Shown: positions 9,673 to 64,000, counted from the stretch's first letter. The stretch: DNA of 64,000 nt from Candidatus Poseidoniia archaeon (GCA_030748895.1 JASMLC010000005.1:35517-99516); one strand, 5' to 3'. Made by a program: numbers and translations. Notes: generated from the sequence alone by a model not told the origin.

Positions 9673-9748
9673 TGGTGCCGGGGGCGGGGTTTGAACCCGC
9701 GACCTCCGGATTATGAGTCCGGCGCGCTACCAACTACGCCACCCCGGC
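9673..9748 (-). tRNA. tRNA-Met (anticodon CAT), elongator type, CCA encoded
   Basis: Reverse complement folds as a cloverleaf: acceptor GCCGGGG/CCCCGGC, anticodon arm CCGGA-CTCATAA-TCCGG, T arm GCGGG-TTCAAAC-CCCGC. G1:C72 argues against initiator. Confidence 0.85.
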
Positions 9749-9829
9749 ACGCGGTGCGGCGGACGGCAGGCGCCATAAAAGGATTAAGACTCGGGCGGGC
9801 TTTTTAGCGGGCGCCAACTGCCGCACGCG

Positions 9830-12800
9830 ATGGCAGCCGACTCCGTCGGGGATTACGACCCGGTAGCGCTCGAGCAGGCGGTCGCCGCGCGCTGGGCGGC
9901 GGAGGGCACGTTCGCGCAGCAGGTGGCGCAGCGCGAGGGGGCGCAGCCGTTCGTATTCCTGGAGGGGCCACCGACTGCCAATGGCCGTCCGGGTATCCAC
10001 CACGTCGTCTCGCGGACCTACAAGGATTTGGTCTGCCGCTGGCGCGCGATGCAAGGGCGCTACGTCGAGCGCAAGGGCGGCTGGGACACTCATGGGCTAC
10101 CGGTCGAAATCGAGGTGCAGAAAGCGCTCGGGCTGGGGACGAGCAGCGAAATCGAGGATTACGGCATCGAGGCGTTCAACAAGGCGTGTCGCGAAAGCGT
10201 CTGGACCTACGAGTCGGCGTGGCGCGAGATGACCGAGCGCATGGGGTTCTGGGTCGACATGGACGATCCCTACGTCACGCTCCACGACGACTACATCGAG
10301 TCGGCGTGGTGGTCGCTGAAACAGATGTTCGACAAGGGGTTGCTCTACCGCGACTACAAGGTGCTGCCCTACTGCCCGCAGACCGGCACCAGTTACAGCA
10401 GCCACGAAGTCGCGCTGGGCTACAAGGAAGTCAGCGAGGCTTCGCTCTACGCCCGCTTCAGGCTGGTCGACGACGACGCTTCAATCCTGGCGTGGACCAC
10501 GACGCCGTGGACGCTGCCGGGCAACGTTGGCCTGGCCGTTGGGCCGGATATCACCTACTGCCGCGTGCGCGTCACCGCGCCGCCCGAGGGCTGGACCGGC
10601 CCGGGCGGTGCCGCGGTGGGCGACGAACTTATTCTGGCGAAGGAATTGCTGAAGGCGACGCTGCGCCACCAGGCCGAGGTGCTGGAGGAATTCCCCGGCT
10701 CCGAACTTGTCGGCCGGCGCTACGAGCCGCTCTTCCCCGGCGCGATTGACGCGGGCGGCTCGGAAACGGCGTGGACCGTCCTCGCGGCCGACTTCGTCAC
10801 CACCGAGGACGGCACTGGCGTCGTCCACACCGCCGTCATGTATGGCGAGGACGATTTCAATCTGGGGCGCACCGTCGGCCTGCCCGAAGTACACACCGTC
10901 GGCACCGACGGCCGTTTCGTCGCCGGGGTGCATCCCGACCTTGACAGCCGCTACGTCAAGGAGTGCGACGGCGACATCATCGCGCTGCTCGACGAGGCGG
11001 GGCGGCTCTACCGCACCGAGGATTACACCCACGACTACCCCCACTGCTGGCGCACCGACCACCCGCTACTCTACTACGCCATGGATTCGTGGTTCGTGCG
11101 CATGACCGCGGTGCGCGAGCAGCTGCTGGCGCACAATGCGCAGGTGGAGTGGGCGCCGGCGTGGGTCGGCGAGAAGCGGTTCGGCGAGTGGCTCGAGAAC
11201 GTCAAGGACTGGGCCATCAGCCGCGAGCGGTTCTGGGGCACGCCGCTCCCGGTCTGGTGCTGCGGCTGCGGCCACCAGCACTGCGTCGGCAGTCGCGCCG
11301 AGCTGCGCGAGCTGGCGCTTGACCCCGCCACCGTTCCCGAGGAGTTGCACCGGCCTTACGTCGACGCGGTAAAGCTGCGCTGCTCCGAGTGCGGCGGCGA
11401 GATGGCGCGCGAGCCGTTCGTGATGGATTGCTGGTTCGACTCGGGCTGCGCTTCCTTCGCGCAGTGGCACTACCCCTTCGCGGAGGACGGGAAATTCGAG
11501 GCGAATTTCCCGGTCGACTACATCTGCGAGGGGGTTGACCAGACGCGCGGCTGGTTCTACTCGCTGCTGGCGGTCGCGACCGCGGTCTTCGACTCGCCCT
11601 GCTACCGCAGCTGCCTGTCACTCGGCCTTATCCTGGACCACGAAGGCAAGAAGATGTCCAAGTCGCGCGGCAATATCGTCAACCCGGGCGACCACTTCGA
11701 CCGCGAGGGCGCCGACGCCGTGCGCTGGTATATGGTGACGGCGGGCGCCCCGTGGGCCGAGCTACGGTTTGACGCCAAAGGGCTGCGCGAGACCTTCGCG
11801 CGCTTCTTCCTGACTTTGTGGAACACCTACCGTTTCCACGCCGACTACGCCGCGCTCGACGATTTCGACCCGGACGCGGAGCCGCCCCCACTGGCGCCGC
11901 TCGACCGCTGGGCGCTCTCGCGGCTCGCCGCCGTCGTCGAGGAATATACGGCGCTCTTCGAGCAGTGGCGCTTCCACCGCGCGGCGCGGCTGCTGGAGGA
12001 GTTTGTCATCGACGACGTTAGCAACTGGTACGTGCGGCGCTCCCGCCGGCGGCTCTGGAACGACGCCGCATCGGAGGACAAGGCGGCCTGCCAGCACACG
12101 CTGCACACATTGCTCGCGACCGTCTGCCGGCTGATGGCGCCGATTGCGCCCTACATGAGCGACCACATCCATCACACCTTGACGGGCGATAGCGTGCATC
12201 TCACCGACTGGCCGGCGTCCGCAGAGCGCGACACGGCGCTCGAGGAGCAGATGGCACTGGCGCGCGCGCTGGCCGAAGCGGGGCGCCGCGTGCGCGCCGA
12301 GTCGCAGCGGCGCCAGCGGCTGCCGTGCCGCGCCGGCTGGATTGTCGGCGGCCCCGACATCGCGCAATTCCACGAACTGCTGGCGGAGGAGCTGAACGTC
12401 GAAATACTGGCGGTCGCGCCGGAGCTGGGGAAGTTCCAGCAGGTCGAGCTGCGCCCCAATTTCGGCACGCTGGGCGCGAAAGTCAAGGGCGACCTGCCCG
12501 CCGTCAAGACAGCGCTCGAAGCGCTCGACCCCGAGGAGGGCGCCGCGGCGCTCGAGGCCGGCCAGCTCGAGCTGGCCGGCCACGCCATCGCCCCCGAAGA
12601 TATCGAGCTGCTGCGCGTCCAGAAGGAGGGCTTCGCCGCCGCGACGCTCGATTCAGGCGTTTCGCTGGTGCTCGACATGGCGGTCGACGACGCGCTGCTC
12701 TCGAAGGGGCTGGCGCGCGAAATCACCCGCCGCGTGCAGGCGCAGCGCAAGGCGCTCGACTTGGCGATTGAGGACCGCATCACGCTCGAGGTGTGGCTGC

Positions 12801-12958
12801 CCGACGGGACGCCCGAACTGGCGGCTGCCGACTGGGAGTGGGTGCAGGCGGAGACCCGCACCACTGACGCGAAACTGCACCGCAGGGCGGTGCCGAAGCG
12901 GGCGGAGCGCTTCGAGGTCGACGGGGTTGGCTTCGGGTTCAGCGCCCGCCACGCTTAA
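9830..12958 (+). CDS. ileS: isoleucine--tRNA ligase (archaeal/eukaryal type)
   Basis: 1042 aa; class I HIGH region (PPTANGRPGIHHV), KMSKS motif, and editing (CP1) domain signatures. Confidence 0.95.
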   Translation: MAADSVGDYDPVALEQAVAARWAAEGTFAQQVAQREGAQPFVFLEGPPTANGRPGIHHVVSRTYKDLVCRWRAMQGRYVERKGGWDTHGLPVEIEVQKALGLGTSSEIEDYGIEAFNKACRESVWTYESAWREMTERMGFWVDMDDPYVTLHDDYIESAWWSLKQMFDKGLLYRDYKVLPYCPQTGTSYSSHEVALGYKEVSEASLYARFRLVDDDASILAWTTTPWTLPGNVGLAVGPDITYCRVRVTAPPEGWTGPGGAAVGDELILAKELLKATLRHQAEVLEEFPGSELVGRRYEPLFPGAIDAGGSETAWTVLAADFVTTEDGTGVVHTAVMYGEDDFNLGRTVGLPEVHTVGTDGRFVAGVHPDLDSRYVKECDGDIIALLDEAGRLYRTEDYTHDYPHCWRTDHPLLYYAMDSWFVRMTAVREQLLAHNAQVEWAPAWVGEKRFGEWLENVKDWAISRERFWGTPLPVWCCGCGHQHCVGSRAELRELALDPATVPEELHRPYVDAVKLRCSECGGEMAREPFVMDCWFDSGCASFAQWHYPFAEDGKFEANFPVDYICEGVDQTRGWFYSLLAVATAVFDSPCYRSCLSLGLILDHEGKKMSKSRGNIVNPGDHFDREGADAVRWYMVTAGAPWAELRFDAKGLRETFARFFLTLWNTYRFHADYAALDDFDPDAEPPPLAPLDRWALSRLAAVVEEYTALFEQWRFHRAARLLEEFVIDDVSNWYVRRSRRRLWNDAASEDKAACQHTLHTLLATVCRLMAPIAPYMSDHIHHTLTGDSVHLTDWPASAERDTALEEQMALARALAEAGRRVRAESQRRQRLPCRAGWIVGGPDIAQFHELLAEELNVEILAVAPELGKFQQVELRPNFGTLGAKVKGDLPAVKTALEALDPEEGAAALEAGQLELAGHAIAPEDIELLRVQKEGFAAATLDSGVSLVLDMAVDDALLSKGLAREITRRVQAQRKALDLAIEDRITLEVWLPDGTPELAAADWEWVQAETRTTDAKLHRRAVPKRAERFEVDGVGFGFSARHA

Positions 12959-12982
12959 GCAGCGGCGCAGCCTGCGGGCACG

Positions 12983-13504
12983 ATGGAGTACCGCAAGGCA
13001 ACCGACAGCGAAATCGTCGCCGCCGCGGTCGCGACGCTCGAGGCCTCGGGCCACGTCGGGACGCAGGGCGAAATGCAGCGGCTGGTGCTGGCGCGGCTCC
13101 ACGAAGAGGACGGCGAATTCCGGCTCGGCGCCGAACGGATGCGGCGCGTGCTGGTGCACTCCGGCCGCGTCAGGCTCGACATCCGCACCCGCTCGGTCGG
13201 CGCGGCGCCCGAGCCCGACGAAGCGGACCTGCGGCGGATGGGCATGCGCTACGACCCGGTCGTGAAGCGCTGGCGCCGCATTCGCGAAAGGGATGACCTG
13301 TCGGGGCACCACCACCACCGCGGCGAATTCGCCGCGCCCGGAGTCCCGTGCCCGGTCTGCCGCGAGCCGCTGGCGAAGGTGCACAACGCGACGCTCTCGG
13401 GCGGCCGCGTCGCCATCGGCTTCCGCTGCCCGCTCTGCCGCTACACGACGGGGCATCGCTGGCGCGAGCCGGCGCGCTACGGCTTCTCGCTGCGGGAGGC
13501 GTGA
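12983..13504 (+). CDS. hypothetical protein with C-terminal C4 zinc ribbon
   Basis: CPVC...CPLC pairs; stop overlaps the start of the downstream nuclease (TGATG). Confidence 0.45.
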   Translation: MEYRKATDSEIVAAAVATLEASGHVGTQGEMQRLVLARLHEEDGEFRLGAERMRRVLVHSGRVRLDIRTRSVGAAPEPDEADLRRMGMRYDPVVKRWRRIRERDDLSGHHHHRGEFAAPGVPCPVCREPLAKVHNATLSGGRVAIGFRCPLCRYTTGHRWREPARYGFSLREA

Positions 13505-14496
13505 TGCAGGTCTTCGCGCATGACGGCATCTGCGTCTCCAACGGGGAAGGGGCAGTCTACCTTGACCCGTCGCGCGGGCGCGCCGATGGAGTGGTGACGC
13601 ATGCGCACTCCGACCACCTGCGGCCGCGGACGCACATGACTCCCGCGACGGCCGAGGTGATGCACGCGCGCACCGGCAGCCGCAAGGCGCAACTGCACGG
13701 CTACCGCGAGCCGTTCGCGGTGCGCGGCATCGAGGTCGAATTCTACGACGCTGGCCACGTCATCGGCAGCGCGATGGTCGCGGTCGACGGCGGACGCGTA
13801 CTCTACACCGGCGACTTCAACCCCTACGGCACCATCACTGCCGGCCGCGCCGAGCCGCAGCGATGCGAAACGCTGGTCATCGAAGCGACCTACGGCCGGC
13901 CGGAGCAGGTGCTCCCGCCGCGCCACCGCGTGCTGCGCGACCTGCAGGGGTGGATGCTGGCGGTCGCCGCGAACGGCGGCGGCATCGTGGGGGCGTACAC
14001 GCTCGGCAAGGCGCAGGAGGTCGTCGCGGCCGCCAACGCCGTCGGGCTGCGGCCGGCGGTTTCCGACGAGGTGGGCGAGGTGTGCGACATCTACGTGCAG
14101 CACGACGTACCGCTGGAGTACGACCGCTTCGCGGCGCTCTCGCCTGAGCAGCGTGCCGCGCCGGGGATGCTCGTGACATCGACGACCGCGACCAGCGGCC
14201 GCCGCCCCGACGCGGTGGTGCTGGAGCTGCGGCAGCGCGGCGCGCACACCGCGCGCGTCTCCGGCTGGTGCGCCTTCGCGCCGTGGGCGCTGCGCGGTGT
14301 CGACGCGGGGTTCCCGATGAGCGACCACGCCGACTTCACCGGGCTGCTCAACTTCGTCGAGGCGTGCGCGCCGCAGCAGGTCTACACAGTCCATGGCGCG
14401 CAGAGCGAGCTGGCGCGCGAAATCCGTAAACGGCTGGGAATACCTGCACAAGCACTCCCCGACCGGGGGGAAACGACGCTGGAGGAATTTACGTGA
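13504..14496 (+). CDS. MBL-fold beta-CASP family hydrolase (mRNA 3'-end-processing-factor-like / ligase-associated exonuclease-like)
   Basis: HAHSDH metallo-beta-lactamase motif and beta-CASP-type downstream His/Asp motifs. Start taken at MQVFAHDG (13504); the upstream ORF-track extension is Pro/Ala/Arg-rich and overlaps the preceding gene. Confidence 0.6.
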   Translation: MQVFAHDGICVSNGEGAVYLDPSRGRADGVVTHAHSDHLRPRTHMTPATAEVMHARTGSRKAQLHGYREPFAVRGIEVEFYDAGHVIGSAMVAVDGGRVLYTGDFNPYGTITAGRAEPQRCETLVIEATYGRPEQVLPPRHRVLRDLQGWMLAVAANGGGIVGAYTLGKAQEVVAAANAVGLRPAVSDEVGEVCDIYVQHDVPLEYDRFAALSPEQRAAPGMLVTSTTATSGRRPDAVVLELRQRGAHTARVSGWCAFAPWALRGVDAGFPMSDHADFTGLLNFVEACAPQQVYTVHGAQSELAREIRKRLGIPAQALPDRGETTLEEFT

Positions 14497-15143
14497 CTCC
14501 AGGAAAACTTGTACTGGTGCGTCACGGGCTCTCAACCTACAACGACCAGAACCGGTTCACCGGCTGGAAGGACGTGCCGCTCAACGCGCAGGGCATTGCG
14601 GAGGCAGAGCAGGCGGCGCCGCTACTGCGCGGGATGGAGTTCGGCATCGCCTTCACGTCGGTGCTGGTGCGCGCGCAGCATACGCTCGACGTCCTGCTCG
14701 CCGGTCTCGGGCAGGAAGGCATTCCGGTCGAGCGCGACCTGGCGCTCAACGAACGCAACTACGGCGACCTCATCGGGCAGAACAAGGCCGAAGCCGCGGA
14801 ACGCTTCGGAACGGAGCAGGTGCACCAGTGGCGCCGCAGCTTCGACATCGCGCCACCGGGCGGCGAGTCGCTGAAGGAGACGGCCGACCGTGCGATTCCC
14901 TACCTGCGCGACCGCATCCTGCCCGAAATCATGGCGGGGCGCAACGTGCTGGTGAGCGCGCACGGCAACTCGATTCGCGCCATCGTGATGCATCTTCTCG
15001 ACTACAGCCCGGCACAAATCCTGCAGACCGAAATCGGCTGGTGCGAGCCGTGGGTCTTCAGCTTCGGTGACGACGGCTCCGCGGTGGACCTGCAGGTCAT
15101 CCCGCGCCCCGGCATCGAAAGCATGAGCCGGCTGCCGCAATAG
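14493..15143 (+). CDS. histidine phosphatase family, 2,3-bisphosphoglycerate-dependent phosphoglycerate mutase-like
   Basis: LVLVRHGLSTYNDQNRFTGWKDVPL (RHG catalytic His motif), SAHGNS second His motif; 216 aa. Confidence 0.75.
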   Translation: MTPGKLVLVRHGLSTYNDQNRFTGWKDVPLNAQGIAEAEQAAPLLRGMEFGIAFTSVLVRAQHTLDVLLAGLGQEGIPVERDLALNERNYGDLIGQNKAEAAERFGTEQVHQWRRSFDIAPPGGESLKETADRAIPYLRDRILPEIMAGRNVLVSAHGNSIRAIVMHLLDYSPAQILQTEIGWCEPWVFSFGDDGSAVDLQVIPRPGIESMSRLPQ

Positions 15144-15161
15144 ACTACGTACGGGCGCGAC

Positions 15162-15461
15162 TCACTCGCGCGATTTGGACCAGCCCTTGACCTGCTTCAG
15201 GTTACCACGCGTCGGACGCAGCTTCAACTCACGGCCCCATTCGTCCTTCAGGATTATGTAGTCTTCGCGCGGAACGAAGCGCGCCGAGACAAAGTAACCC
15301 GACTCGGACTTGAACTGGATTTCCAGCATCTCGCCCTCGTCCTCCTCCTCGCTCCAGACCAGTGGATAGCCCAGCCCCTCGTAATGGCTGGAAATCGCAT
15401 CCATGAATTTCCTGACCGAGCTCTTCGATGCTGCTTCGCCCATGTTGACTGCTGTGCGCAC
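15162..15461 (-). CDS. small acidic hypothetical protein
   Basis: 99-aa ORF with protein-like composition and no recognisable motif. Confidence 0.3.
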   Translation of the reverse strand: MRTAVNMGEAASKSSVRKFMDAISSHYEGLGYPLVWSEEEDEGEMLEIQFKSESGYFVSARFVPREDYIILKDEWGRELKLRPTRGNLKQVKGWSKSRE

Positions 15462-15496
15462 GCAGAGTGCAAGTTTTAACGCTTGCGCGGGAGCAC

Positions 15497-15504
15497 TTCT
15501 ATAA
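15497..15504 (+). promoter_or_regulatory. archaeal box-A/TATA-like element (TTCTATAA) ~25 nt upstream of tRNA-Gln
   Basis: Seen in sequence; spacing typical of archaeal tRNA promoters. Confidence 0.4.
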
Positions 15505-15528
15505 CCAGCGCCTGCTCGACGGCAGGCA

Positions 15529-15603
15529 GCCCCGTGGTGTAGCGGTCCAGCATGCAGGCCTTTGGAGCCTGTGACCCAGGTTCGAATCCGGGCGGGGCTA
15601 CCA
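15529..15603 (+). tRNA. tRNA-Gln (anticodon TTG), CCA encoded
   Basis: Acceptor AGCCCCG/CGGGGCT; anticodon arm CAGGC-CTTTGGA-GCCTG; T loop GGTTCGAATCC. The 5' half is near-identical to known archaeal tRNA-Gln. One A:G mismatch in the T stem. Confidence 0.75.
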
Positions 15604-16071
15604 CTTTAAGTCTGACCCACAAACAACTTAAGATGGTTGCAAACATTCCAAATCTAGGAGCGTCTCCTTCGTGAAGGATGGTGCTCCCGGACCGCCTTCG
15701 CCCTCTACGGTCATTTCAAGGAAAGAAGTGCGGGCTCATGCCAAATCATTGAGAGAATTCCGGTCGAAGTACAAGGATATCGTTCCGAAATATGATGCAC
15801 TTGAACAGGTAAGACAGTGATGGAATGATTCAATTATGGGTTCTTTATTTGGAGACTCTATCGAAGAGAGGGGGCCTACATGGAGGGTGCAGACCTGACG
15901 GGCGCCGACCTAGGGTTAAAATAGGTTGGGGCACTGTGGATATTGGCAGTTTATATATAGACAATCGTAGATACATTTTGCATCGCCCCGAATGGACTTT
16001 GACTATGTCATAGAGTGACGGGGAGAGGCGGTGCTGGGTGCGGTAACGCTACCCGATTTAGGGCGGTAGGT

Positions 16072-16088
16072 CTATTATATATATTGCG
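16072..16088 (+). promoter_or_regulatory. TATA-like box (TTATATATAT) ~25-30 nt upstream of the first island gene, second copy of a duplicated AT-rich motif
   Basis: Seen in sequence; a GGAAAGG Shine-Dalgarno-like stretch also precedes the ATG at 16107. Confidence 0.35.
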
Positions 16089-16106
16089 ATACATTGCAGG
16101 AAAGGT

Positions 16107-17276
16107 ATGGATAGACCAAAAACGCTCGAAGGATGGGGAAATCAGCCACTGGAAGAAATTCTGTGGCTCTGTCAGGAAACCATAGAAGATATCGAAGTAA
16201 CAACGGTTAAACGCTGGCGGGAAGCGGGCGGAAAAGTACTGGGCCACTTCCAGGTATATTTCCCAGAAGAAATAGCCCATGCTGCTGGCATGCTGCCTAT
16301 GAAGATGTTTGGAGCTTCTGTGGAACCCCGTGAAGCAGATAGCAGATTTGGATCCTTTTTATGTTCGATTTTGAAAACAAATCTGGAACAGGTCCTTTCC
16401 GGCAGGGTGGAAATAGATATGTTCGTCACACATCCTATTTGTGATGCCGCCCGAAATCTGGCCCCAATTTGGGGGCGGAATTTTGATTACCCTTGCCAAA
16501 TTCTTTATCTTCCCCAGAACCCGAACTCTAGTCATTCCGTTCAATATCTGAAAGAAGAGTATGAAAGAATCCAGGGTGTAATCGAAGGAGTTGCGGGCAG
16601 GAAAATAACAAAGGATGACTTGCGAAATTCTATTGCTGTTTTTAACAAAAACCGAGCCTTACTCCGAAAGTTATATGCGATAAAAAGGGAAAGGCCTTGG
16701 CTCATTACTATCAATGAAGCATACGTCTTAGTGGCTTTAGGTGGCTTGATTCCACGGGAAGAACATAATGAATTACTCGAAGCAGTAATTCCTCTAATTG
16801 AGAAGAGAGATGCCCGTGAACAGGATCGCATTCGGGTTGTTTTTGAAGGTGGTTTCTGTGAACAGCCACCACTGGACATGTTGAGGACTATCGGCAGGTC
16901 ATGTTACGTAGTTGATGATGACCTGTTAATTGGAATGCGATACATACTCGAAGATATTGATGCTGGTGATAATCCGTTAGAGGCGATGGCTGAAGCCTAT
17001 ATCAATAACTCATCCTACAGCCCCGTGCAACATGATTTGCGTAAACCGAAAGAAAAGATGTTGAGAGAAAGGTTTGAAAATACGGATGCAGAAGCTGTGA
17101 TTATAACTGCAGCAAAAATGTGCGAACCTGGTCTAGAGGAACAGGTCACTTATACTCAGGAGCTCGAAAAGGATGACACCCCCTATTTTGTGAGCGAATT
17201 TGAGGAAAATATGTCCAGTTTTGACCATTTGGAGATTCAGCTAGAAACGTTCGTAGAGAACCTGATGTTTGATTGA
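16107..17276 (+). CDS. benzoyl-CoA reductase / 2-hydroxyacyl-CoA dehydratase family subunit, BcrC/BzdN-like
   Basis: 389 aa, HGD-D family. First gene of a C-B-A-D-ordered cluster. Confidence 0.7.
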
Positions 17277-18585
17277 GGTGAAAATGAATAATGTAACTAA
17301 AAAAGATATAGTAGGTCGTGGTACCCGGGAAGGGGCTGCTCTTTTTAGAGACTGGTTTCAGGATTTGACGCAGAAGGCCGAAGATGACGAGACTGCAGCC
17401 TATGTTTTTGTCATGGGCAGCATTGCAGAAATACTCCGTGTATTTGATATGCCTATGGTGTTTCCAGAAATTAATTCTCTACAGACTGCTGTTCGCCATG
17501 TAGCAGACGACTTTCTGAATACAGCAGAGGATTATGGGTATTCTCCAGATATTTGCGGATACGTTAAAGCGGATTTTGCAATGCAAATGCAGAATGGGAA
17601 TCACCCCATGGGACGCATACCCAAGCCAGGAATTGCCGTACTGACCAATGCCTGTAATACATATTTCAAATGGGCTGAAATCTGGGAGCGGATTTATGAC
17701 ATTCCCATGGTTTCAATAGATGTGCCAGCAACGCGTGAAGCGGGAACGAGGACCTGGCCGGGAGATGAACAATTTGAGCGAGAAAAGAAATATGTAAAAG
17801 TTCAACTTGAAGAACTGATAGAAACGTGTGAGGAGATAACAGGAAAGAAATTCGATGTCGATCGTCTCAGGGAAGTTCTAGGACACGCTAACACAATGAG
17901 TCGCTGTTGGAAACGAGTACTAGAACTGAATCAGAGCAGCCCTTCTTTGTTCAATGCCCTTACTGATGGAACTGTATATCTAGGGATGTCCAATGTGTTT
18001 CGAGGGACTCCCGAAGGAGCCCGGTTTTTTGAAAGGCTGGTAGAAGAAATGGAGTATATGGCTGCAAATGGCATAGGAACCCTTACCGATGAGAAATATA
18101 GATTGAGTTTCATTGGTGTTCCTTGTTATCCAATCTTCAGACGTTTCAATGAAATGTTCACGAAATGGGGTGGGTCGTTTGTCATGTCATCCTATCTCTG
18201 GTTCGCTTCAGGTGGGACGAATATAGGCGTACAGTATGATTTGGACGACCCTTTTGATTCGCTGGCGGAAGGTGTGTTGATTAGTGTTCGTGACGCCATG
18301 GATTCTATGTTTCACCCCGAACTTACGGTTCTTGCACAATCTGATGAGTTCAATGTCGATGGCGTGGTGTACCACCCCATAAAAAGTTGTAGAACGACTT
18401 CGACAGGTATGGCAGACAATCGTCGCATGTTAATGGAAAAAAGTAATTTGCCGAGTCTATTTATTGAATCAGACATGATGGATTCAAGAGTTGTCGGAGA
18501 AGCCCAGATGAAAAACCGTATTGATGCTTTTTTTGAGGGATTGGCGTCACGGAAGGCAAGGGCTACAGTAGAGGGAGGAGGATAA
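17269..18585 (+). CDS. benzoyl-CoA reductase / 2-hydroxyacyl-CoA dehydratase family subunit, BcrB/BzdO-like
   Basis: 438 aa, HGD-D family; 8-nt overlap with upstream gene. Confidence 0.7.
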
Positions 18586-18586
18586 T

Positions 18587-19393
18587 ATGGCATTAGCTGC
18601 TGGAGTGGATGTGGGTTCTACACAAACAAAAGCTGTTATTATCAATGAGGACCTGAAAATCATCGGCAGGGCATTGATTGATACGGGTGCTAACGTGGTA
18701 CAAGCTGCCGAGAAGGCATACTTCAAAGCACTGAATGAGAGCAAACGTCGGGAAGAAGAAGTTGCCTATGTCATTGGAACTGGTTATGGGCGGTATAAAG
18801 TAACATTTGGGAATACGCAGGTTACGGAAATCAGTTGCCATGGCCGAGGTGCCGTGCATATGTACCCAGAAACAAGGACGGTTCTAGATATGGGTGGACA
18901 GGATACTAAAGCAATCAGTGTTAGTGAAATCGGCGAAATTGTAGATTTTTGTATGAATGACAAATGTGCTGCTGGTACTGGCCGTTTCTTGGGAGCAGCT
19001 TCCATGGCTCTAGATATTCCCCTGAATGAACTAGGCCCCACAGCCTTGAAATCAAAAAAACCAGTTAAGATTAGCACTACATGTACTGTGTTTGCGGAAT
19101 CGGAAGTGTTGTCCTGGCTTGGCAAAGGCAAGAAAATTGAGGACATCCTGTTAGGTGTCCACCAATCGATATCCTCTCGTTCACTTGCTTTATTAAGACG
19201 GGTCGGATTTAACGATGAAATTACTTTTACAGGTGGCGTGGCGAAAAATATTGGTATGGTTGAAGTCTTGACTGCAGGCCTTGGGATGAAAATGAACGTG
19301 AGTGATGAATCACATTACATGGGAGCTCTGGGAGCTGCACTATTCGCTATGGATCACATTATGGAAAGCCGAATACCTGTAGGTGAAACATGA
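18587..19393 (+). CDS. BadF/BadG/BcrA/BcrD-type ATPase (acetate/sugar kinase fold, [4Fe-4S]-bridging reductase ATPase subunit)
   Basis: [12 protein letters not shown]-terminal ATPase motif; DKCAAGTG motif; 268 aa. Confidence 0.8.
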
Positions 19394-20193
19394 AACATGT
19401 CATTGGAGTAGATGTGGGTTCTACATACACCAAGGCTGTGATTCTTTCCCCTGAAAAAAAGGTGATTGGAAAAGCGATGGTACAAACTGGTTTCAAATTG
19501 GATAAGGCAGCCGAAAAGGTATTCGATCAAGTTCTGAAAGAATCGGGTCTGGCCAAAGAAAAGATCGGATATGCCATTTCAACGGGATACGGCCGACATA
19601 TGGTACCTTATCGAGACATTACAGTCACTGACTTAACAGCTACAGCGCGGGGCACAAATTTTTTCTTCCCTGAAACCCGGACTGTACTAGATATCGGCGG
19701 GCAGACTATGAAGGCCAGTCGCCTAGATGAAAAAGTAAAAGTCAGGTCTTTCCGCCTTAATGACAAATGTGCAGCCGGAACGGGAGCGTTTCTCGAAAAA
19801 ACAGCCCGATATATGGGATATGGAACAGAGGAAATCGGCCCCCTCGTTGATACATCAAAGGAGCAAGTTCCCATATCTGGAGTTTGTGCCGTGTTCGCGG
19901 AGTCTGAAGTAATTAATCAATTGTCTTTGGGCTCAGCACCCTCAGATATCATGTTTGGAGCAATGACCTCATTGGTAAAACGTGCAATACAGTTATTGAA
20001 ACGAGTCAAAATGGAATCACAGGTCACACTTACTGGTGGTATTATGCGATTTGGGACGATGGTGAATGTACTAACAGAAAACGTAGATGAAAAAATCAAT
20101 GTACCTGACGGAGACATGGTTCAGTTCACGACCGCGCTCGGTGCTGCAACACTGGCCCTACAACGCCTAGAGAAAGTGGGGGCATCTGCATGA
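19390..20193 (+). CDS. BadF/BadG/BcrA/BcrD-type ATPase, second subunit
   Basis: [11 protein letters not shown]; DKCAAGTG; 267 aa; ATGA overlap with upstream gene. Confidence 0.8.
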
Positions 20194-20429
20194 GCGAACT
20201 TTGCGGCATGGCAGATTCTCCGCGAGACGAGAGATTAAAGGCGAAAGGATGGGCAAGGCAATTTACCTGTGGGGAACCACGTTTGACTGAAGCATGCGAA
20301 CTGTTTGAGTCTATGGGAAAGAAAATTCATTTAGAATCAATGGCAAAGGAGGACCAACCCATGGGAGCTTCCTGTGATGCTTGTTTAGCCGGCTGTGGTG
20401 ACGAAATGAAAACAATCTGGGTTCGGTAA
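20190..20429 (+). CDS. small Cys-rich protein of unknown function (6 Cys; C-terminal CDACLAGC)
   Basis: 79-aa ORF translationally coupled (ATGA) to the second ATPase. No canonical CxxCxxCxxxCP ferredoxin motif. Confidence 0.4.
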   Translation: MSELCGMADSPRDERLKAKGWARQFTCGEPRLTEACELFESMGKKIHLESMAKEDQPMGASCDACLAGCGDEMKTIWVR

Positions 20430-20453: not shown

Positions 20454-21665
20454 ATGGTAGGATTAAAGACAGTATTTGACATATTCGCATTTTATGATGA
20501 TGTGAAGGCCAGCGGGAAAAAAATAGCTTGGTGTTCCGCATTTGCCCCCACTGAAGTCCTTATGGCAATGGATATTATCCCTGTATACCCTGAAAACCAT
20601 GCTGCAATACTGGGCGCCCTATCTCCTGATAGAAACCCTGACAATCCGTACAGCCAAGATTCTATCAAATTATCTGAGGCAAGTGGGTTAAGCTCACCCA
20701 TACTATGTAAATATGCCCTCAGTGATATCGGGATACTCCTAGGAGATGTAGCCTCTCCCATCCACGGCCTCCCCGAACCGGATATGTTTTATGCCTGCAA
20801 CAGCCAATGTTCAGTTGTGGAACGGTGGGGCAATGAGGTCCAGAAAATATTTTCACAGCAAAACAAAGATGTCCCTCATTATGTACTGCGGGCACCGCCT
20901 CTGGTAAGAAAAGAAGAGCATTCACCAGAGGAATTACAGCATTTTAAAGAGAAAATCGAACAACACATAAAGGAAATATGTGACCGTTTTGAATTGAACT
21001 ATAATGAAGAAAAACTAAATGAAATTGTAGAAGAAGCAGACAAGGCCAATCGATTATGGCAGAAATGTCTTGAACTAGCGAAAAGAAAACCGACACCATG
21101 GACCAATATTGATGCTTTTACTGCTATGGCACCAATTGTAGTCGCACGAGGAACAAAAATCTGTACGGATTATTACCGCTCGCTTCTGTCTGAACTGGAG
21201 GAAAGAATTGAAAAAGGAATCCAAGCGGTGCCCGATGAAAAAATAAGACTTGTCTGGGACGCAATCCCCATCTGGCCGCGAAAAAACTGGCTGGCAAAAT
21301 ACTGCGAAGAAAACAATGTTGCTTTTGTAGCCAGTACATACACACATAGTTGGTGGTTCAATTTTGACGCAAATCATGCAATGGACTCTCTAGTGAGAAG
21401 ATACGCATGGAATACCATGAATCGTTCAAAAGACTGGATTTTGAATTGGACCATCAATATGGTCAAGGAATATCAGGCAGATGGGATTGTTGCTCATTGG
21501 AACAACAGTTGCAGCATTTGGAACAGTTATGTTAAACGCCGACTTCCGGGATATGAAGCGGCAGGGATCCCCACTGTAATGATTGAGGCAGATATGGTAG
21601 ATGCACGATTCTTTGATGAAGCAAAAATCACTGAGCAACTGGATAATTTTGTTCAATCATTTTAA
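20454..21665 (+). CDS. 2-hydroxyacyl-CoA dehydratase / benzoyl-CoA reductase family subunit (HGD-D family)
   Basis: 403 aa, HGD-D family fold; paralog of the 16107 and 23402 products. Confidence 0.65.
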   Translation: MVGLKTVFDIFAFYDDVKASGKKIAWCSAFAPTEVLMAMDIIPVYPENHAAILGALSPDRNPDNPYSQDSIKLSEASGLSSPILCKYALSDIGILLGDVASPIHGLPEPDMFYACNSQCSVVERWGNEVQKIFSQQNKDVPHYVLRAPPLVRKEEHSPEELQHFKEKIEQHIKEICDRFELNYNEEKLNEIVEEADKANRLWQKCLELAKRKPTPWTNIDAFTAMAPIVVARGTKICTDYYRSLLSELEERIEKGIQAVPDEKIRLVWDAIPIWPRKNWLAKYCEENNVAFVASTYTHSWWFNFDANHAMDSLVRRYAWNTMNRSKDWILNWTINMVKEYQADGIVAHWNNSCSIWNSYVKRRLPGYEAAGIPTVMIEADMVDARFFDEAKITEQLDNFVQSF

Positions 21666-21673
21666 TTGATTAA

Positions 21674-23398
21674 ATGGAAGTAGCAGATAAAATATATAAG
21701 AGCGAAATTGATTTAATGAAATTTCCGCAGAATCTGGCGGTAATGCTTAATCAAAATGGCGAAAATTTTTCAAGCTCAGCCGTTTATCAAGAACCAAGAA
21801 ATGGTGAATATAAAGTATTAACCTGGTCTCAATTTGTTAGAGATATTTCAGCTATTCAAGAATATCTACGTTCCATGGGGCTTAAGCAGGGTGATAGAAT
21901 TGCCATTCTATCGCGCAATTGCCAGGAAATGCTAGAACTGGAGTTGGCTGTTATGGCTATGGGTGCTATTTCAGTTCCCATTTTTGCAGGGTATCCAGAT
22001 GATCAGGCTAATCGTCTGCTGGATTTTTGTAACCCGACATTTGCAGCAGTAGCTGATAATATTCAATATGCAAAAATCAAGACTCCCGAATCATTGCGAA
22101 AAATCATTCATTTTTCTGGCGATGAAGGAAAATTTGGTTCAAACTCCATCTCTTTCGGGGATATGGTTTCTCATTATATTGGCGTTACGGATGTTACCGG
22201 GTTAGATATCCCGGCTGACACTGTATCATTGATGATGTACACTTCCGGTACTATGGGAAGGCCCAAATGTGTACAGTTGACTCACGGAAATATTCTATCG
22301 CAGCAGGCGGCTATGAAGGCCTTGTGGGATTTGAATCAAGAAGACAGATTCCTGTCCTACCTTCCGTGGCACCATAGTTTTGGCGGAATTTTTGAGAAAT
22401 TCGCTGCAATTGTGAATGGGGCAACTCTATCTCTTGAAAATGGATATGGTAAAGATATTAGTACCCTTTTAAAAAACTGGAACCATGTACGGCCAACGGT
22501 ATTTTTCAGCGTCCCTCGTATTTACCAAGAGATCGCTATCAGGGCCACGCAAGATCCGGCTATAGAGAAAACGATTTTTCATGATGAACTACGTTTCGTC
22601 TTTACGGCAGCAGCTGCCCTGCCCAAAAATATAGCTGATCTCTTTGCAAACTATGGAGTGCCAGTCATCGAGGGATGGGGATTGACTGAAACTTCTCCCT
22701 GTTGTACCACGACTGACCCAAATATTGAGAGAGAAACTGGGGTTGTGGGCAAGCCGATTCCTGGTGTATCTGTGAGAATTGCCTCTGATGGGGAAATACT
22801 GGTTAAAGGTCCGAATGTAATGGCCGGATACTACAGCAATTCTGAAGCCACTACTGAAGTGATCGAGGAAAGTGGATGGTTTCACACAGGCGACATAGGG
22901 GAATACACAGACACTGGCCTGAAACTCATCTCCAGGAAAGGCAGGATATTCAAGTTGATTAATGGTGAAAACGTGGTCCCCACGGAAGTTGAAAATCTGA
23001 TTTCAAAGGATTGTGCATATCTATCGCACACCTTTTTGAGTGGTCGCAACCGTGATTATCCAGTAATTCTTCTTTTCCCAAATAAGAATGTGTTTTCCCA
23101 AAAACCTGATAAGTCTATGTTATGCGATAGGTGTCAATGCCCATCAAATATGCTGGAATATTTAAAGTGTTTAAGCGAATGTCTAAAGATATGGAACCAG
23201 GCTATTACACCGAAATATGCTCGTTACAAAAAAGCGTTGGTACTTGACTATGAACTGACTATCGAGAATGAAGAACTGACTCCTTCAATGAAGCTTTCTC
23301 CAAAAGTAGTGGAGAATATCTTTCAAGATGATATCGCCTCTCTCTACGAATCTGAAAAACCAATATCTAAAAAGGCATATGTGATTAATCTGGAATAG
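21674..23398 (+). CDS. AMP-dependent acyl-CoA synthetase/ligase
   Basis: YTSGTMGRPKCVQLTHGNI (AMP-binding motif I), GWGLTETS, FHTGDIG..GRIFKLINGENVVP motifs; 574 aa. Confidence 0.85.
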   Translation: MEVADKIYKSEIDLMKFPQNLAVMLNQNGENFSSSAVYQEPRNGEYKVLTWSQFVRDISAIQEYLRSMGLKQGDRIAILSRNCQEMLELELAVMAMGAISVPIFAGYPDDQANRLLDFCNPTFAAVADNIQYAKIKTPESLRKIIHFSGDEGKFGSNSISFGDMVSHYIGVTDVTGLDIPADTVSLMMYTSGTMGRPKCVQLTHGNILSQQAAMKALWDLNQEDRFLSYLPWHHSFGGIFEKFAAIVNGATLSLENGYGKDISTLLKNWNHVRPTVFFSVPRIYQEIAIRATQDPAIEKTIFHDELRFVFTAAAALPKNIADLFANYGVPVIEGWGLTETSPCCTTTDPNIERETGVVGKPIPGVSVRIASDGEILVKGPNVMAGYYSNSEATTEVIEESGWFHTGDIGEYTDTGLKLISRKGRIFKLINGENVVPTEVENLISKDCAYLSHTFLSGRNRDYPVILLFPNKNVFSQKPDKSMLCDRCQCPSNMLEYLKCLSECLKIWNQAITPKYARYKKALVLDYELTIENEELTPSMKLSPKVVENIFQDDIASLYESEKPISKKAYVINLE

Positions 23399-23401
23399 AA
23401 A

Positions 23402-24601
23402 ATGGCTAGACTCGAATCACAAAAAAGACTGAAAGAAGTTCTGAAAGATTACTATACGGGAATGAAATCTCCGATAGCTTGGTGCACTAGTGCTGGGCCG
23501 GCGGAGATACTGCGGGCTCTTGGATTTGAGGTGTATTTCCCAGAAAATCATGGTGCCTTTCTGGGAGCGTCACGCACAGCTGAAAAATACATTCCACGTG
23601 CTCATCAGGCAGGTTTTGACGGTGAAATCTGCTCCTATCTTACGGCAGACATTGGTGCTTGGTTGATGAAAGAGACTCCCCTGACAAAAGTGTATGGTCT
23701 GAAATCCATTCCCGAACCTGATATTATAGTGTACAACACAAATCAGTGCAGGGAAGTGTCCGAATGGTTCAACTTTTTTGGTCGTGAATATAACTGTCCT
23801 GTGGTCGGAATATATCCGCCACGCTATTTAGAGGAAGTTTCAGAAGCTGATGTAGATAATGTAACGGCTCAATTAAGGGGTCTGATTTCCGTTGGAGAAG
23901 AAATTATTGGAAAACCTTTGGATTATCAGAAACTGTCGGAGACACTTGCACTGAGTTTTGAAGGTTCGAAACTCTGGAAAAAAATGCTGGAAACTGCGAG
24001 CCAGACGCCAGCACCACTAACATTTTTTGATGGATGTATTTTAATGGCTCCTATTGTTATCCTGCGTGGAACGGAGATATGTGTTGATTTCTATAGAGAA
24101 GCGTTGACGGAACTTGAGGAATTAGTTGCAAGAAACCAAGGTGCCGTCCCTGATGAGAAAGTGAGAATTTACTGGGAAGGCATGCCGGTCTGGGGACGTT
24201 TAAGAAACCTGGCCGAGCTTTTCGCCGAAAATAATACTGCTGTGGTGGCCTCAACCTACTGCAATAGCTGGGTATTCGATGATTTTGACCCGGAAAGGCC
24301 TTTGGAATCTATGGCTTATGCGTATACTCAAATTTTCATTAACAGGGGAGAAAATGCAAAGCTAGAAGTGATGAAGAATTTGATGAAAACCTTCAGAGTT
24401 GACGGCGTCGTATTTCACGATTCAAAAACTTGTTTCAACAACGCGAACAGTCGTTTTGGCTTGCCTCAACGAGTTGAAGAAGCTACAGGCAAGGATAGCA
24501 TATCCTTCGATGGAGACTTAGTGGATTTGAGATTCTTTTCCGATGGTCAGACACGAACAAAACTTGAAACATTCATCGAACAACTGAAATTCAAGAAATA
24601 G
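23402..24601 (+). CDS. 2-hydroxyacyl-CoA dehydratase / benzoyl-CoA reductase family subunit (HGD-D family)
   Basis: 399 aa; same family as 20454; the two are separated by the CoA ligase gene. Confidence 0.65.
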   Translation: MARLESQKRLKEVLKDYYTGMKSPIAWCTSAGPAEILRALGFEVYFPENHGAFLGASRTAEKYIPRAHQAGFDGEICSYLTADIGAWLMKETPLTKVYGLKSIPEPDIIVYNTNQCREVSEWFNFFGREYNCPVVGIYPPRYLEEVSEADVDNVTAQLRGLISVGEEIIGKPLDYQKLSETLALSFEGSKLWKKMLETASQTPAPLTFFDGCILMAPIVILRGTEICVDFYREALTELEELVARNQGAVPDEKVRIYWEGMPVWGRLRNLAELFAENNTAVVASTYCNSWVFDDFDPERPLESMAYAYTQIFINRGENAKLEVMKNLMKTFRVDGVVFHDSKTCFNNANSRFGLPQRVEEATGKDSISFDGDLVDLRFFSDGQTRTKLETFIEQLKFKK

Positions 24602-24609
24602 ATTAAATT

Positions 24610-25578
24610 ATGGAAGGAAATATAGTGAAGATATCTGATGCTCAATTAAGGATAGGTATAATCGGTGGAGGACCAGCCGGGCTCACATTAGCAGCCCATC
24701 TAATTGAAGCTGGAGCAATGGTAGTTGTGTGTGACCTTATAACTGAAAAAATTGATGTGATAAAAAAATCCGGCATTAAACTGACAAAGACAATCAACAA
24801 ACATGTAAGCATCAACCATGTCTGCTGCACTATTTCTGAACTGGGTGATTATGACCTAGACGTGATTGTAATATCTGTAAAAACCACAGCACTAAATGCT
24901 GTTGTTGAGCAATTAACTCGGATTGATTCCGGAAAAATGTTTGTCATGTGTGCTCAGAATGGCATTGATAACGAATTAATCGCTGCAGAGGCCTTCGGTA
25001 AAGATAGAACCTTGCGGATGGTCATAAATTATGCAGGTGAAATGAAAAATTTGAATACGGTCAAAGTGACCTTTTTCCATCCGCCTAATCACATAGCCGC
25101 TTTAACAGCAAATGGAAAAGAGATTTCAGAAGCAATTAGAAATTTATTGAATTCTGTGAAACTGAAGACAGAAATTTCGGGACCGGATAAGATAAGGAAT
25201 TATGTCTGGGAAAAATCCATTTTGAATGCTTCATTGAGCTGTTTATGCGCCATATCACATTGCACTATGAAAGAGGTGATGACTTTTCCTGAAACAAAGA
25301 ATCTAGTCGCAGGAATCATTGATGAATCTATCATGGTTGCGGAAAAGGAAAAGATAGAGATACGGAATGGTTTTCGAAGAGATTGTATTCTTTACCTGGA
25401 AAAGGCAGGCAATCACAAGCCCTCTATGCTAATCGATATCGAGAATGGGGCAATGACCGAAATTGACCGACTAAATGGGAAAATTCTGGAGTATGGATTA
25501 AAACATGGCATAGACACACCGCTGAATCGTGCCGTTACTGCGCTAATCCATCTTCAAGAAAAGAAAGAAAATGGATAA
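24610..25578 (+). CDS. ketopantoate reductase (PanE/ApbA) family 2-oxoacid reductase
   Basis: N-terminal Rossmann IGIIGGGPAGL, ApbA N and C domains; 322 aa. Confidence 0.65.
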   Translation: MEGNIVKISDAQLRIGIIGGGPAGLTLAAHLIEAGAMVVVCDLITEKIDVIKKSGIKLTKTINKHVSINHVCCTISELGDYDLDVIVISVKTTALNAVVEQLTRIDSGKMFVMCAQNGIDNELIAAEAFGKDRTLRMVINYAGEMKNLNTVKVTFFHPPNHIAALTANGKEISEAIRNLLNSVKLKTEISGPDKIRNYVWEKSILNASLSCLCAISHCTMKEVMTFPETKNLVAGIIDESIMVAEKEKIEIRNGFRRDCILYLEKAGNHKPSMLIDIENGAMTEIDRLNGKILEYGLKHGIDTPLNRAVTALIHLQEKKENG

Positions 25579-26332
25579 ACATCATCTTGGCATAGACTTG
25601 GGTTCCTCTTACACAAAGTTTGTTGTCACGAACGGTTCAAATGATTTGGTAATCAAAAGTGTAATTCCTTCACTAAGCAGGAACAAGAATCTATTCAAGA
25701 GCCAGTTGTCTAAAATAAAAGAACAATTCTCAATCAATGGAGTCTGTACAACTGGATACGGTCGAGATAGTTTTCAGGGGGATGTGAAAAAAACGGAATT
25801 GATTTGTGCATCGGCAGGAATATCTGTGCCATACCCTAAGCATAAATGCATCGTTGATATTGGTGGCGAAGATATTAAAATTATAGAGAGTGGACCGTCG
25901 GGAGAAGTAATTAATTTCCACATGAATGATAAATGTGCTGCGGGTACAGGGACCTTTATCACTGAAATTGCTGAGAGGGCCGAACTTAAAATTGATGAAA
26001 TGAGCGAACTTGCCCAGTTGGCCACCGGCTCGAAGATAATCAACAGTTTCTGCACAGTATTCGCCAAATCAGAGATTCTAGGATGGAAATTCAATGATAT
26101 CCCCATCGAGGAAATATCCAAGGGAATATATCTGTCAATCGTAAACCGGATCCGAAAACTTCCTGTCAAAACCGATATTCCTGTAATTCTTTGTGGAGGT
26201 GTAATAGCATTTCATCCATACCTGCAGGAACTGTTAACGAAAGAATTTTCGGCTGAGGTGGAAACCGCGCCCAATCCCCAATTTGCGGTTGCATTAGGCG
26301 CATCTGTTCTGGCACAGAAAGAATGTTCCTGA
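25571..26332 (+). CDS. BadF/BadG/BcrA/BcrD-type ATPase (HgdC-like activase)
   Basis: IDLGSSYTKFVV; DKCAAGTG; 253 aa; third paralog in the island. Confidence 0.75.
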   Translation: MDKHHLGIDLGSSYTKFVVTNGSNDLVIKSVIPSLSRNKNLFKSQLSKIKEQFSINGVCTTGYGRDSFQGDVKKTELICASAGISVPYPKHKCIVDIGGEDIKIIESGPSGEVINFHMNDKCAAGTGTFITEIAERAELKIDEMSELAQLATGSKIINSFCTVFAKSEILGWKFNDIPIEEISKGIYLSIVNRIRKLPVKTDIPVILCGGVIAFHPYLQELLTKEFSAEVETAPNPQFAVALGASVLAQKECS

Positions 26333-30390: not shown

Positions 30391-30402
30391 AATTAAACGA
30401 CA

Positions 30403-30441
30403 TTACCCAGGTAATCTTACATGACTGAGTTTTTCAAGCCT
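30403..30441 (+). repeat. 39-bp perfect direct repeat, right copy
   Basis: Identical to 28580-28618. Contains the ribosome-binding region and first 7 codons of the transglutaminase-like gene. Confidence 0.9.
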
Positions 30442-50001: not shown

Positions 50002-50002
50002 A

Positions 50003-55122: not shown

Positions 55123-55133
55123 AAGAGGGTGCA

Positions 55134-63995: not shown

Positions 63996-64000
63996 CTACT

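Follow-up and report, generated by a model that had tools for sequence, protein, structure and literature searches.

A putative MBR-type class I aryl-carboxyl-CoA reductase operon in a Poseidoniia archaeon and the widespread small CxxC protein family that accompanies it

Introduction

Which enzyme is encoded by a tightly packed operon in the genome of a planktonic archaeon, and what is the small protein encoded at its end? These questions are raised by positions 16107-20429 of a 64,000-nucleotide stretch of DNA from Candidatus Poseidoniia archaeon (GCA_030748895.1 JASMLC010000005.1:35517-99516), the whole of which is called the window here. An initial annotation, made from the sequence alone, had read this locus as a class I (ATP-dependent) benzoyl-CoA reductase module of hybrid type, with the gene order of Thauera and the ATPase sizes of Azoarcus, in which a new Cys-rich protein of 79 amino acids (aa) stands in the place of a ferredoxin.

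Class I reductases are sought as mild catalysts for a "biological Birch reduction". They comprise three types, namely benzoyl-CoA reductase (BCR), 3-methylbenzoyl-CoA reductase (MBR) and BZD (Fuchs et al. 2025, PMC11971306). The MBR type is a stable heterotetramer, BzdNO and BzdPQ are predicted to associate only transiently, and earlier structure attempts on tetrameric enzymes failed (PMC11971306). The best explanation that we can offer for the whole locus, and one that we hold to be probable, is an MBR-type class I reductase together with a 79-aa copy of a widespread accessory family.

Results

Layout of the operon

We have found five tightly packed, translationally coupled open reading frames (ORFs), located exactly where the initial annotation had placed them. 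The order of the four large genes is gamma-beta-alpha-delta, equivalent to C-B-A-D as had been claimed, and the small gene follows:

16107-17276, plus strand: gamma subunit (MbdN / BcrC-like), HGD-D family, 389 aa (Pfam HGD-D, 1.2e-62)
17284-18585, plus strand: beta, substrate-binding subunit (MbdO / BcrB-like), HGD-D family, 433 aa (Pfam HGD-D, 7.1e-62)
18587-19393, plus strand: alpha ATPase (MbdQ / BcrA-like), 268 aa (Pfam BcrAD_BadFG, 3.4e-62)
19390-20193, plus strand: delta ATPase (MbdP / BcrD-like), 267 aa (Pfam BcrAD_BadFG, 7.7e-53)
20190-20429, plus strand: small CxxC protein, 79 aa (no Pfam or NCBIfam match)

The Pfam matches bear out the proposed pair of HGD-D subunits, given as 389 and 438 aa, and the proposed pair of small BcrA/BcrD-type ATPases. 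As to the second size, the longest beta ORF (17269-18585) opens with TTG and gives 438 aa, while the ATG at 17284, which is used by four independent annotations of the identical gene (L015-L018), gives 433 aa. Counted to this ATG, the gap between gamma and beta is 7 nt, and that between beta and alpha is 1 nt. The alpha/delta and delta/small junctions are both 4-nt overlaps (ATGA); that is, the start of the small ORF overlaps the stop codon of delta.

Scans for sigma-70 promoters and terminators around the operon have given scores at or below chance. The 500 bp located 5' of the gamma gene (15607-16106) show no blastn similarity to the Marinimicrobia relatives of this locus, which have a MarR regulator gene there. 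AT-rich TATA-like runs are seen in this segment at ~15951-15961 and, some 20-30 bp ahead of the ATG, at ~16075-16088, and they might represent an adaptation to archaeal transcription.

Identity of the four large proteins

In the PDB search, the four large proteins pair one-to-one with the chains MbdN, MbdO, MbdQ and MbdP of the solved 3-methylbenzoyl-CoA reductase (PDB 9G87, 9GAI, 9GAL, 9GBA), whose source organism was identified by homolog search as Thauera chlorobenzoica. Gamma matches MbdN (9G87_B) at 62.7% identity (E 9.6e-167, 559 bits), beta matches MbdO (9G87_A) at 54.6% (E 2.5e-162, 544 bits), alpha matches MbdQ (9GAI_D) at 73.1% (E 5e-122, 409 bits), and delta matches MbdP (9GAI_C) at 56.7% (E 5e-90, 305 bits). 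For the catalytic subunits, the scores to the next solved proteins, the 2-hydroxyisocaproyl-CoA dehydratase HadBC and BzdNO, are three- to six-fold below those to Mbd: gamma reaches 130 bits with HadC and 91 bits with BzdN, and beta reaches 136 bits with HadB and 84 bits with BzdO. For the ATPases, the best solved chain outside the MBR entries is the HadI activator (214 and 180 bits). The Mbd scores are also far above those of the double-cubane protein. We have found no paper on the MBR structure under the enzyme name, MbdONQP or the PDB codes.

BcrCBAD has no PDB entry, and the comparison with Bcr was made through NCBIfam models only. BcrC scores 240 bits on gamma (cut-off 421) and BcrB 193 bits on beta (cut-off 487), BcrA and BzdQ score 218 bits (cut-off 578) and 188 bits (cut-off 380) on alpha, and BcrD scores 137 bits on delta (cut-off 313). 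The BzdN and BzdO models give 96 bits (cut-off 454) and 95 bits (cut-off 449), respectively. The dehydratase models HadB (164 bits, cut-off 750) and HadC (171 bits, cut-off 700) are not passed either.

The Cys residues follow the same pattern. Gamma keeps 7 of the 8 Cys of MbdN, alpha keeps all four of MbdQ (C84, C122, C127 and C166), and C127 and C166 of delta are conserved relative to MbdP. After HgdC, we take C127 and C166 of alpha and delta to be the positions that hold the bridging cluster. In beta, C96, C129 and C374 are conserved relative to MbdO; by residue numbering, not from an alignment with BzdO, they would correspond to Cys95/128/380 of BzdO, the ligands of the catalytic aqua-[4Fe-4S] cluster (PMC11971306).

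Overall, the window encodes the four distinct subunits expected of an MBR-type enzyme, i.e., two HGD-D catalytic subunits and two different BcrAD-type ATPases, and their nearest characterised relatives are MbdN/O/Q/P, ahead of Bcr, Bzd and Had. Because of this one-to-one match, read within the three-type classification, we assign the module to the MBR type. To judge from orthology, conserved Cys and pathway context, it appears to be an ordinary member of this known and solved group of class I (ATP-dependent) aryl-carboxyl-CoA reductases, acting on benzoyl-CoA or a substituted benzoyl-CoA. The proposal of a class I module is thereby upheld, at 55-73% identity to MbdN/O/Q/P.

Comparison with known systems

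MbdONQP of T. chlorobenzoica has the same four subunits with conserved Cys, and the ATPases are small in both systems (269/273 aa in Thauera, 268/267 aa in the window). The mixture of Thauera order and Azoarcus size that had been noted is, therefore, no hybrid, since small ATPases are normal for the MBR type. Had/Oah/Dch-type genes lie nearby in both organisms, and a small CxxC ORF follows delta in both. On the other hand, the gene order is gamma-beta-alpha-delta in the window and beta-gamma-alpha-delta in T. chlorobenzoica, and the host here, unlike Thauera, is a marine Poseidoniia archaeon with a Marinimicrobia-like island.

BcrCBAD of Thauera aromatica (TIGR02259-02263) shares the architecture and the C-B-A-D order, and its BcrC and BcrB are the best NCBIfam models for gamma and beta. 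The shortfall in score has been given above; in addition, the window has no adjacent fdx gene, and the match of alpha to the 432-residue BcrA model is confined to the C-terminal half of that model. BzdNOPQ of Aromatoleum sp. CIB (PDB 8S02; PMC11971306) belongs to the same radical-enzyme family, with Cys ligands in BzdO numbered nearly as in our beta subunit, and relatives of the small protein adjoin BzdPQ-type ATPase pairs, whereas the scores of the window proteins to BzdN/O are only 84-96 bits. With the dehydratases HadBC+HadI and HgdAB+HgdC (PDB 3O3M, 4EHT, 1HUX) the window shares the HGD-D fold and a BcrAD-type ATPase with a bridging cluster. Those enzymes use one homodimeric, catalytically acting activator, whereas the window has two ATPase genes in a ring-pathway operon.

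Ring-pathway genes and the proposed mechanism

Three genes further down the operon link the module to dienoyl-CoA hydration (Dch, as best match only), hydroxyacyl-CoA oxidation (Had) and ring hydrolysis (Oah):

26402-27457, plus strand: Had, hydroxyacyl-CoA dehydrogenase (NCBIfam TIGR03201, 437 bits, above the equivalog cut-off of 338.65)
27491-28591, plus strand: Oah, ring-opening 6-oxocyclohex-1-ene-1-carbonyl-CoA hydrolase (NCBIfam TIGR03200, 578 bits, above the cut-off of 464.45)
31156-31923, plus strand: Dch-like hydratase (best NCBIfam match TIGR03189, 216 bits, below the cut-off of 292.5)

The last of these is probably Dch, judging from a match that stays below the cut-off.

By orthology to the published mechanism (PMC11971306), the alpha and delta ATPases would form a heterodimer that holds one [4Fe-4S] cluster between the subunits and accepts an electron from reduced ferredoxin. 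With ATP hydrolysis as the driving force, this electron would then enter the gamma/beta catalytic dimer at very low potential, and the aromatic ring of the CoA thioester would be reduced there to a cyclic dienoyl-CoA. Subsequently, Dch would hydrate this product, Had would oxidise it, and Oah would open the ring.

The 79-aa protein

The description of a translationally coupled 79-aa, 6-Cys product that ends in CDACLAGC and has no ferredoxin motif is correct in every part. Its Cys residues are C5, C27, C36, C62, C65 and C69. A motif scan finds no CxxCxxCxxxC ferredoxin motif, Pfam and NCBIfam searches find no Fer4 domain, and no match has been found in Pfam, NCBIfam, PDB or fold searches. A rubredoxin, zinc-ribbon or HMA protein would be expected to show a pair of CxxC knuckles or else significant similarity in sequence or fold, and the 79-aa protein has neither. 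Two candidate similarities have been rejected. Matches to designed pentatricopeptide repeats (phmmer, E ~1e-6) are an artefact, as ten weak matches to one 16-residue helix were summed and none is significant alone, and a match to the CopA HMA domain (profile against PDB, E 0.67) is too weak for a relationship.

The ORF is a real gene under purifying selection: relative to its relatives, the proportion of non-synonymous differences (pN) is 0.14-0.26 and that of synonymous differences (pS) is 0.65-0.99, i.e., near saturation, and the ratio of non-synonymous to synonymous substitution rates (dN/dS) is 0.11-0.16 where computable. In marine metagenome contigs, its close homologs form 10 clusters at 56-100% identity, and they always lie between the delta ATPase gene and the next gene.

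Profile searching and structure prediction, which the initial annotation had suggested for this protein, have yielded a conserved family and an AlphaFold2 model, with no match to a known fold. The model, built from 127 sequences, has a predicted local distance difference test score (pLDDT) of 79.4, exceeding 90 in the core (residues 11-50) and falling to ~60 in the CxxC loop, which is the sole low-confidence loop of an otherwise confident model. Helices and strands alternate in it (H11-18, E22-27, H31-41, E46-50, H63-69, E74-78).

A widespread family beside the ATPase genes

A profile search of 1.84 billion representatives has returned 323 members (50% identity representatives), and a search with a broader alignment has returned at least 3,568 clusters at 90% identity, without a Pfam domain and nearly all nameless or called "hypothetical protein". 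The members are of 70-110 aa and are recognised by the motifs GW-(K/R)(Q/R)F, EPRLSE, LG-EV-LEP, CxxC and TI(Y/W)TR, all of which are present in the window protein. L16, G20, W21, P30, R31, L32, E34, C62 and C65 are invariant across the family. C62-x2-C65, invariant in 127/127 members, is the sole family-wide Cys pair; C5, C27, C36 and C69 occur in 6-8/127 members, which make up a Marinimicrobia-type clade including the window copy. Hence "Cys-rich" does not describe the family, although within this clade C27, C62, C65 and C69 are all invariant.

We have scanned 80 GTDB species-representative loci that encode close relatives of the delta subunit, taking up to 10 kb of DNA on either side. The small gene lies downstream of delta in ~60 of these 80 loci, and in all but four of them the match begins 30-193 nt past the delta match. 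The hosts include Marinimicrobia, Poseidoniia archaea, Acidobacteriota, Gemmatimonadota and Chloroflexota. That is, the gene recurs after BCR-like operons in both bacteria and archaea, which speaks against the unconserved ORF that the initial annotation had named as a possible refutation. In T. chlorobenzoica itself (CP018839.1; L100 10791-11117), a family ORF overlaps the end of mbdP (E 5.7e-11); NCBI leaves it unannotated, and another assembly calls a 106-aa gene. With this copy after mbdP, and a family of such size, the gene is not peculiar to the operon studied here. A tblastn search with a family member against 72,556 plasmids has given no match.

Distant members lead to the BZD type as well. 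Three of five sampled ones adjoin a BzdPQ-type ATPase pair, in which BzdQ scores 384-437 bits, above the cut-off of 380.2. Two of the three BZD-type clusters examined (L102 and L104) have a family member and a separate ferredoxin gene. In L104, BzdP-like and BzdQ are followed by a 104-aa ferredoxin, then by an 83-aa ORF and then by the small-family member, an arrangement that mirrors P-Q-M-S-T of the Azoarcus/Aromatoleum operon bzdNOPQMSTUVWXYZA; the likeness to BzdS/BzdT is by position only. In another BZD-type cluster, the family member follows a ferredoxin and a NuoEF/BzdV-like module. The bzd operon is known to contain genes of unknown function (PMC6678401). Small ORFs of this kind are not described in the papers on bzd and mbd operons that we have found.

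Fusions occur too. In a metagenome-assembled genome (MAG) labelled Parcubacteria, the C-terminus of the delta ATPase continues in frame into the small domain (L028, 4161-5240). Long stop-to-stop ORFs in high-GC (guanine-plus-cytosine) loci had suggested further fusions of this type, and a frame check has left only L028. In Thalassarchaeaceae MAGs (L033, 4301-5416; L034; L052; L053), the small domain forms the N-terminal part of a 371-aa ORF whose remainder is an enoyl-CoA hydratase (ECH_1, 2e-51).

Some members (e.g., P0015, P0023, P0025, P0028, P0040 and P0058) end in an acidic-aromatic tail, [ED][ED]L[FW], which is missing from the window protein. The unrelated 83-aa neighbour in L104 (6673-6924) ends in the same tail, which could be a shared docking peptide.

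Discussion

Reductase type and substrate

One competitor to an MBR-type reductase would be a 2-hydroxyacyl-CoA dehydratase with its activator. Both large subunits match Pfam HGD-D, and the HadB and HadC models do respond, at 164-171 bits. These scores are, however, far under the cut-offs of 700-750 and ~four-fold below those to MbdN/O in the PDB search, so the clustering with dehydratases that had been named as a possible refutation is not what we observe. In addition, dehydratases have one ATPase where the window has two. It is because of the Had/Oah/Dch genes in the same operon and the two distinct ATPase genes that we exclude this reading, to which we give almost no credence. The substrate within the MBR type is a closer question. 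Specialisation for ring-substituted substrates (methyl-, halo- or hydroxy-benzoyl-CoA, or another aryl-CoA) over benzoyl-CoA would suit the name of the closest characterised enzyme, 3-methylbenzoyl-CoA reductase, and the presence on the island of a second HGD-D system, of an indolepyruvate-type oxidoreductase and of two Mo enzymes that resemble 4-hydroxybenzoyl-CoA reductase. On the other hand, the beta subunit shares no more than 55% identity with the substrate-binding MbdO, the models that Had and Oah pass were built on the unsubstituted pathway, and specificity is not readable from sequence here. We regard such specialisation as a serious possibility that nevertheless falls short of an even chance.

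Status of the small protein

The 79-aa gene is, in our view, a local copy of a widespread uncharacterised CxxC family that travels with the ATPase and electron-input genes of MBR- and BZD-type reductases. Several observations weigh against the combined explanation of reductase and accessory family. All four large proteins stay below the NCBIfam equivalog cut-offs of the BCR and BZD types; NCBIfam, though, holds no MBR-type model, and authentic MbdN/MbdO of T. chlorobenzoica show the same shortfall on BcrC/BcrB (230/221 bits, against 240/193 for the window proteins). The substrate could be a substituted benzoyl-CoA, and the island has been acquired by its host, a planktonic archaeon. The small gene was not found in 19/80 loci, mainly of Pyrinomonadaceae and Blastocatellia, within up to 10 kb on each side. 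In Magnetospirillum sp. XM-1, an acyl-CoA dehydrogenase gene comes directly after beta-gamma-alpha-delta, and the 12.9 kb examined contain no member of the family. In T. chlorobenzoica, the copy has diverged (R31K, E34Q, C-terminal motif lost, no ATG start) in addition to being unannotated, whereas the window copy is well conserved, opens with ATG and has the four clade-invariant Cys. No PDB chain matches the family, including those of the MBR entries 9G87/9GAI/9GAL/9GBA, which have four protein chains. Two of the five distant members lie far from any BcrAD genes in unrelated contexts, and the family must therefore be broader than reductase operons. Finally, with only two invariant Cys, a metal site is a conjecture.

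Since the gene is missing from those 19 loci and from Magnetospirillum, is divergent in Thauera and has no counterpart among the PDB chains, we consider the small protein to be an accessory that is often present but can be dispensed with, and not a stoichiometric subunit of the solved enzyme as the wording "accessory subunit" might suggest. Presumably it is neither needed for catalysis in vitro nor a replacement for ferredoxin.

Possible roles of the small protein

What this accessory does can be proposed only tentatively. The role that we favour, though at less than even odds, is that of a non-stoichiometric ATPase partner, whose CxxC would carry a metal or Fe-S centre used in the assembly, repair or gating of the bridging cluster. 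Docking would take place on the delta side of the ATPase and would involve the beta-alpha-beta core of the protein, which is predicted well. The invariant CxxC would hold the centre, possibly with further ligands from C27 and C69 in the clade of the window copy and from a second protein copy elsewhere, and it is the exposed bridging cluster that this centre would act on. In more general terms, it is conceivable, though we would not expect it, that MBR and BZD systems have a fifth component that has gone unrecognised, namely the small CxxC protein, which matures, repairs, protects or gates the O2-labile bridging [4Fe-4S] cluster or docks the electron donor. If so, its omission may partly explain the difficulty of producing and studying class I reductases.

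The main rivals to an accessory role of this kind are a docking adaptor and an electron carrier. As an adaptor, the small protein would tether partner enzymes into a metabolon that passes on the labile dienoyl-CoA, and the CxxC would be structural, e.g., a zinc site. The hydratase fusions (L033, L034, L052, L053) and the delta fusion (L028) speak for this, as do the acidic-aromatic tails of some members and of the 83-aa neighbour in L104, which are typical of docking peptides. However, fusions of adjacent genes are possibly neutral accidents and are seen in few lineages only, and the window protein lacks the tail, so that we find the adaptor unlikely. The electron carrier was the idea of the initial annotation: a new small protein that feeds the ATPase dimer, replacing ferredoxin or bridging to it. 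It draws on the four clade-invariant Cys (C27, C62, C65, C69), on the island having no gene for a small 2[4Fe-4S] ferredoxin, and on the BZD-type clusters that place a family member among ferredoxin and NuoEF/BzdV-like electron-supply genes. Nevertheless, only two Cys are conserved family-wide, no ferredoxin or rubredoxin motif and no fold match is present, and the gene is missing from some operons. The substitution for ferredoxin in particular is weakened because the family co-exists with ferredoxin at the electron-input side of class I reductases, with a ferredoxin gene alongside in L102 and L104. We therefore judge an electron carrier to be quite unlikely.

Taken alone, the reductase is a routine ortholog of a solved enzyme and adds little. 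The small gene, on the other hand, is real, widely distributed and so far unstudied, and it accompanies the ATPase genes of class I reductases: with thousands of clusters, no name, and no annotation in the reference Thauera genome, it offers a candidate helper that can be tested cheaply.

The genomic island

The operon lies on an insertion next to a tRNA gene:

15528-15603, plus strand: tRNA-Gln (TTG), whose 3' end is the left insertion edge (ARAGORN and empty-site alignment)
15607-60974, no strand: 45.4-kb insertion carrying the operon (GC step and empty-site alignment)

GC content steps from ~0.67 to ~0.44, being 0.40-0.49 on the island (~15650 to 60180) and 0.62-0.71 in the flanks. Within the low-GC block, every ORF of at least 150 aa is on the plus strand. 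Two genomes with an empty site (L105 and L106) align to 9672-15606 and 60975-64000 with ~100 bp between the blocks, and because of this alignment we place the insertion at 15607-60974, at the 3' end of tRNA-Gln. There are no flanking direct repeats, and no integrase is encoded inside. The proteins encoded in the flanks are identical to ones from Candidatus Poseidoniia archaeon MAGs, with cluster mates labelled Marine Group III. The island itself shares its gene order with Marinimicrobia loci that are similar in GC and 68-78% identical in nucleotide sequence, which points to a Marinimicrobia-like organism as the likely source.

A junction of high-GC archaeal DNA with a low-GC operon could also be an assembly chimera, in which case the genomic context would be meaningless. 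The GC step is indeed sharp at both ends, and several MAG contigs break within the gamma gene. Against this, the left junction is present in 5 independent assemblies and the right one in 2, one 100-kb NCBI contig spans both flanks and the island, related genomes have the empty site, and the insertion begins exactly at the tRNA-Gln 3' end. A chimera is thus very hard to credit, and we keep the reading of a true insertion.

What the window presents is a seemingly complete ATP-dependent ring-reduction pathway that a planktonic Poseidoniia archaeon carries on a bacterial-type island of 45 kb, with related operons in Marinimicrobia and Thalassarchaeaceae MAGs. This hints that O2-independent breakdown of aromatic compounds in low-oxygen sea water is more widespread than assumed.

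Poseidoniales and Thalassarchaeaceae MAG contigs (L045, L047, L033, L052 and L053; GC 0.43-0.55) have MBR-type operons of their own, whose delta subunits are 67-70% identical to that of the window. Going by MAG binning labels, the MBR pathway may be widespread in planktonic marine archaea.

Other features of the island

The last ~800 bp of the insertion (60180-60974) are high-GC and include most of a truncated M28 peptidase gene. This gene (60284-61060) is truncated at the N-terminus, its Pfam match starting from profile position 40, and nearly all of it is missing in the empty-site genomes; we thus deduce a deletion on one side at the insertion site.

Directly after the small gene, 20454-26332 encodes a second system of the BCR/HAD family, which is more Had-like. 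Its two HGD-D proteins (403 and 399 aa) are both of the alpha (HadB/MbdO) type, scoring 142-148 bits to HadB, and there is no beta-type (HadC-like) partner. The same segment encodes a single activase of 253 aa, a 574-aa acyl-CoA ligase and a 322-aa dehydrogenase that resembles ketopantoate reductase. Some Marinimicrobia relatives lack the 403-aa HGD-D gene.

Two sets of xanthine-dehydrogenase-family Mo enzymes, together with XdhC and MobA maturation genes, are located at 36204-38944, 47201-50872 and 57274-59988. Their large subunits have 4-hydroxybenzoyl-CoA reductase alpha (TIGR03194) as the best match, at 812 and 560 bits, below the cut-off of 995.

The remaining cargo, at 28673-31104, 31985-34284, 41413-47167 and 53005-56819, includes genes for an aspartate decarboxylase, an aminotransferase, a transglutaminase-like protein, a 172-aa poly-ferredoxin, an aldehyde:ferredoxin oxidoreductase, B12-dependent mutase subunits, a family III CoA-transferase, a fused 843-aa indolepyruvate-type oxidoreductase and hydantoinase A/B-type subunits.

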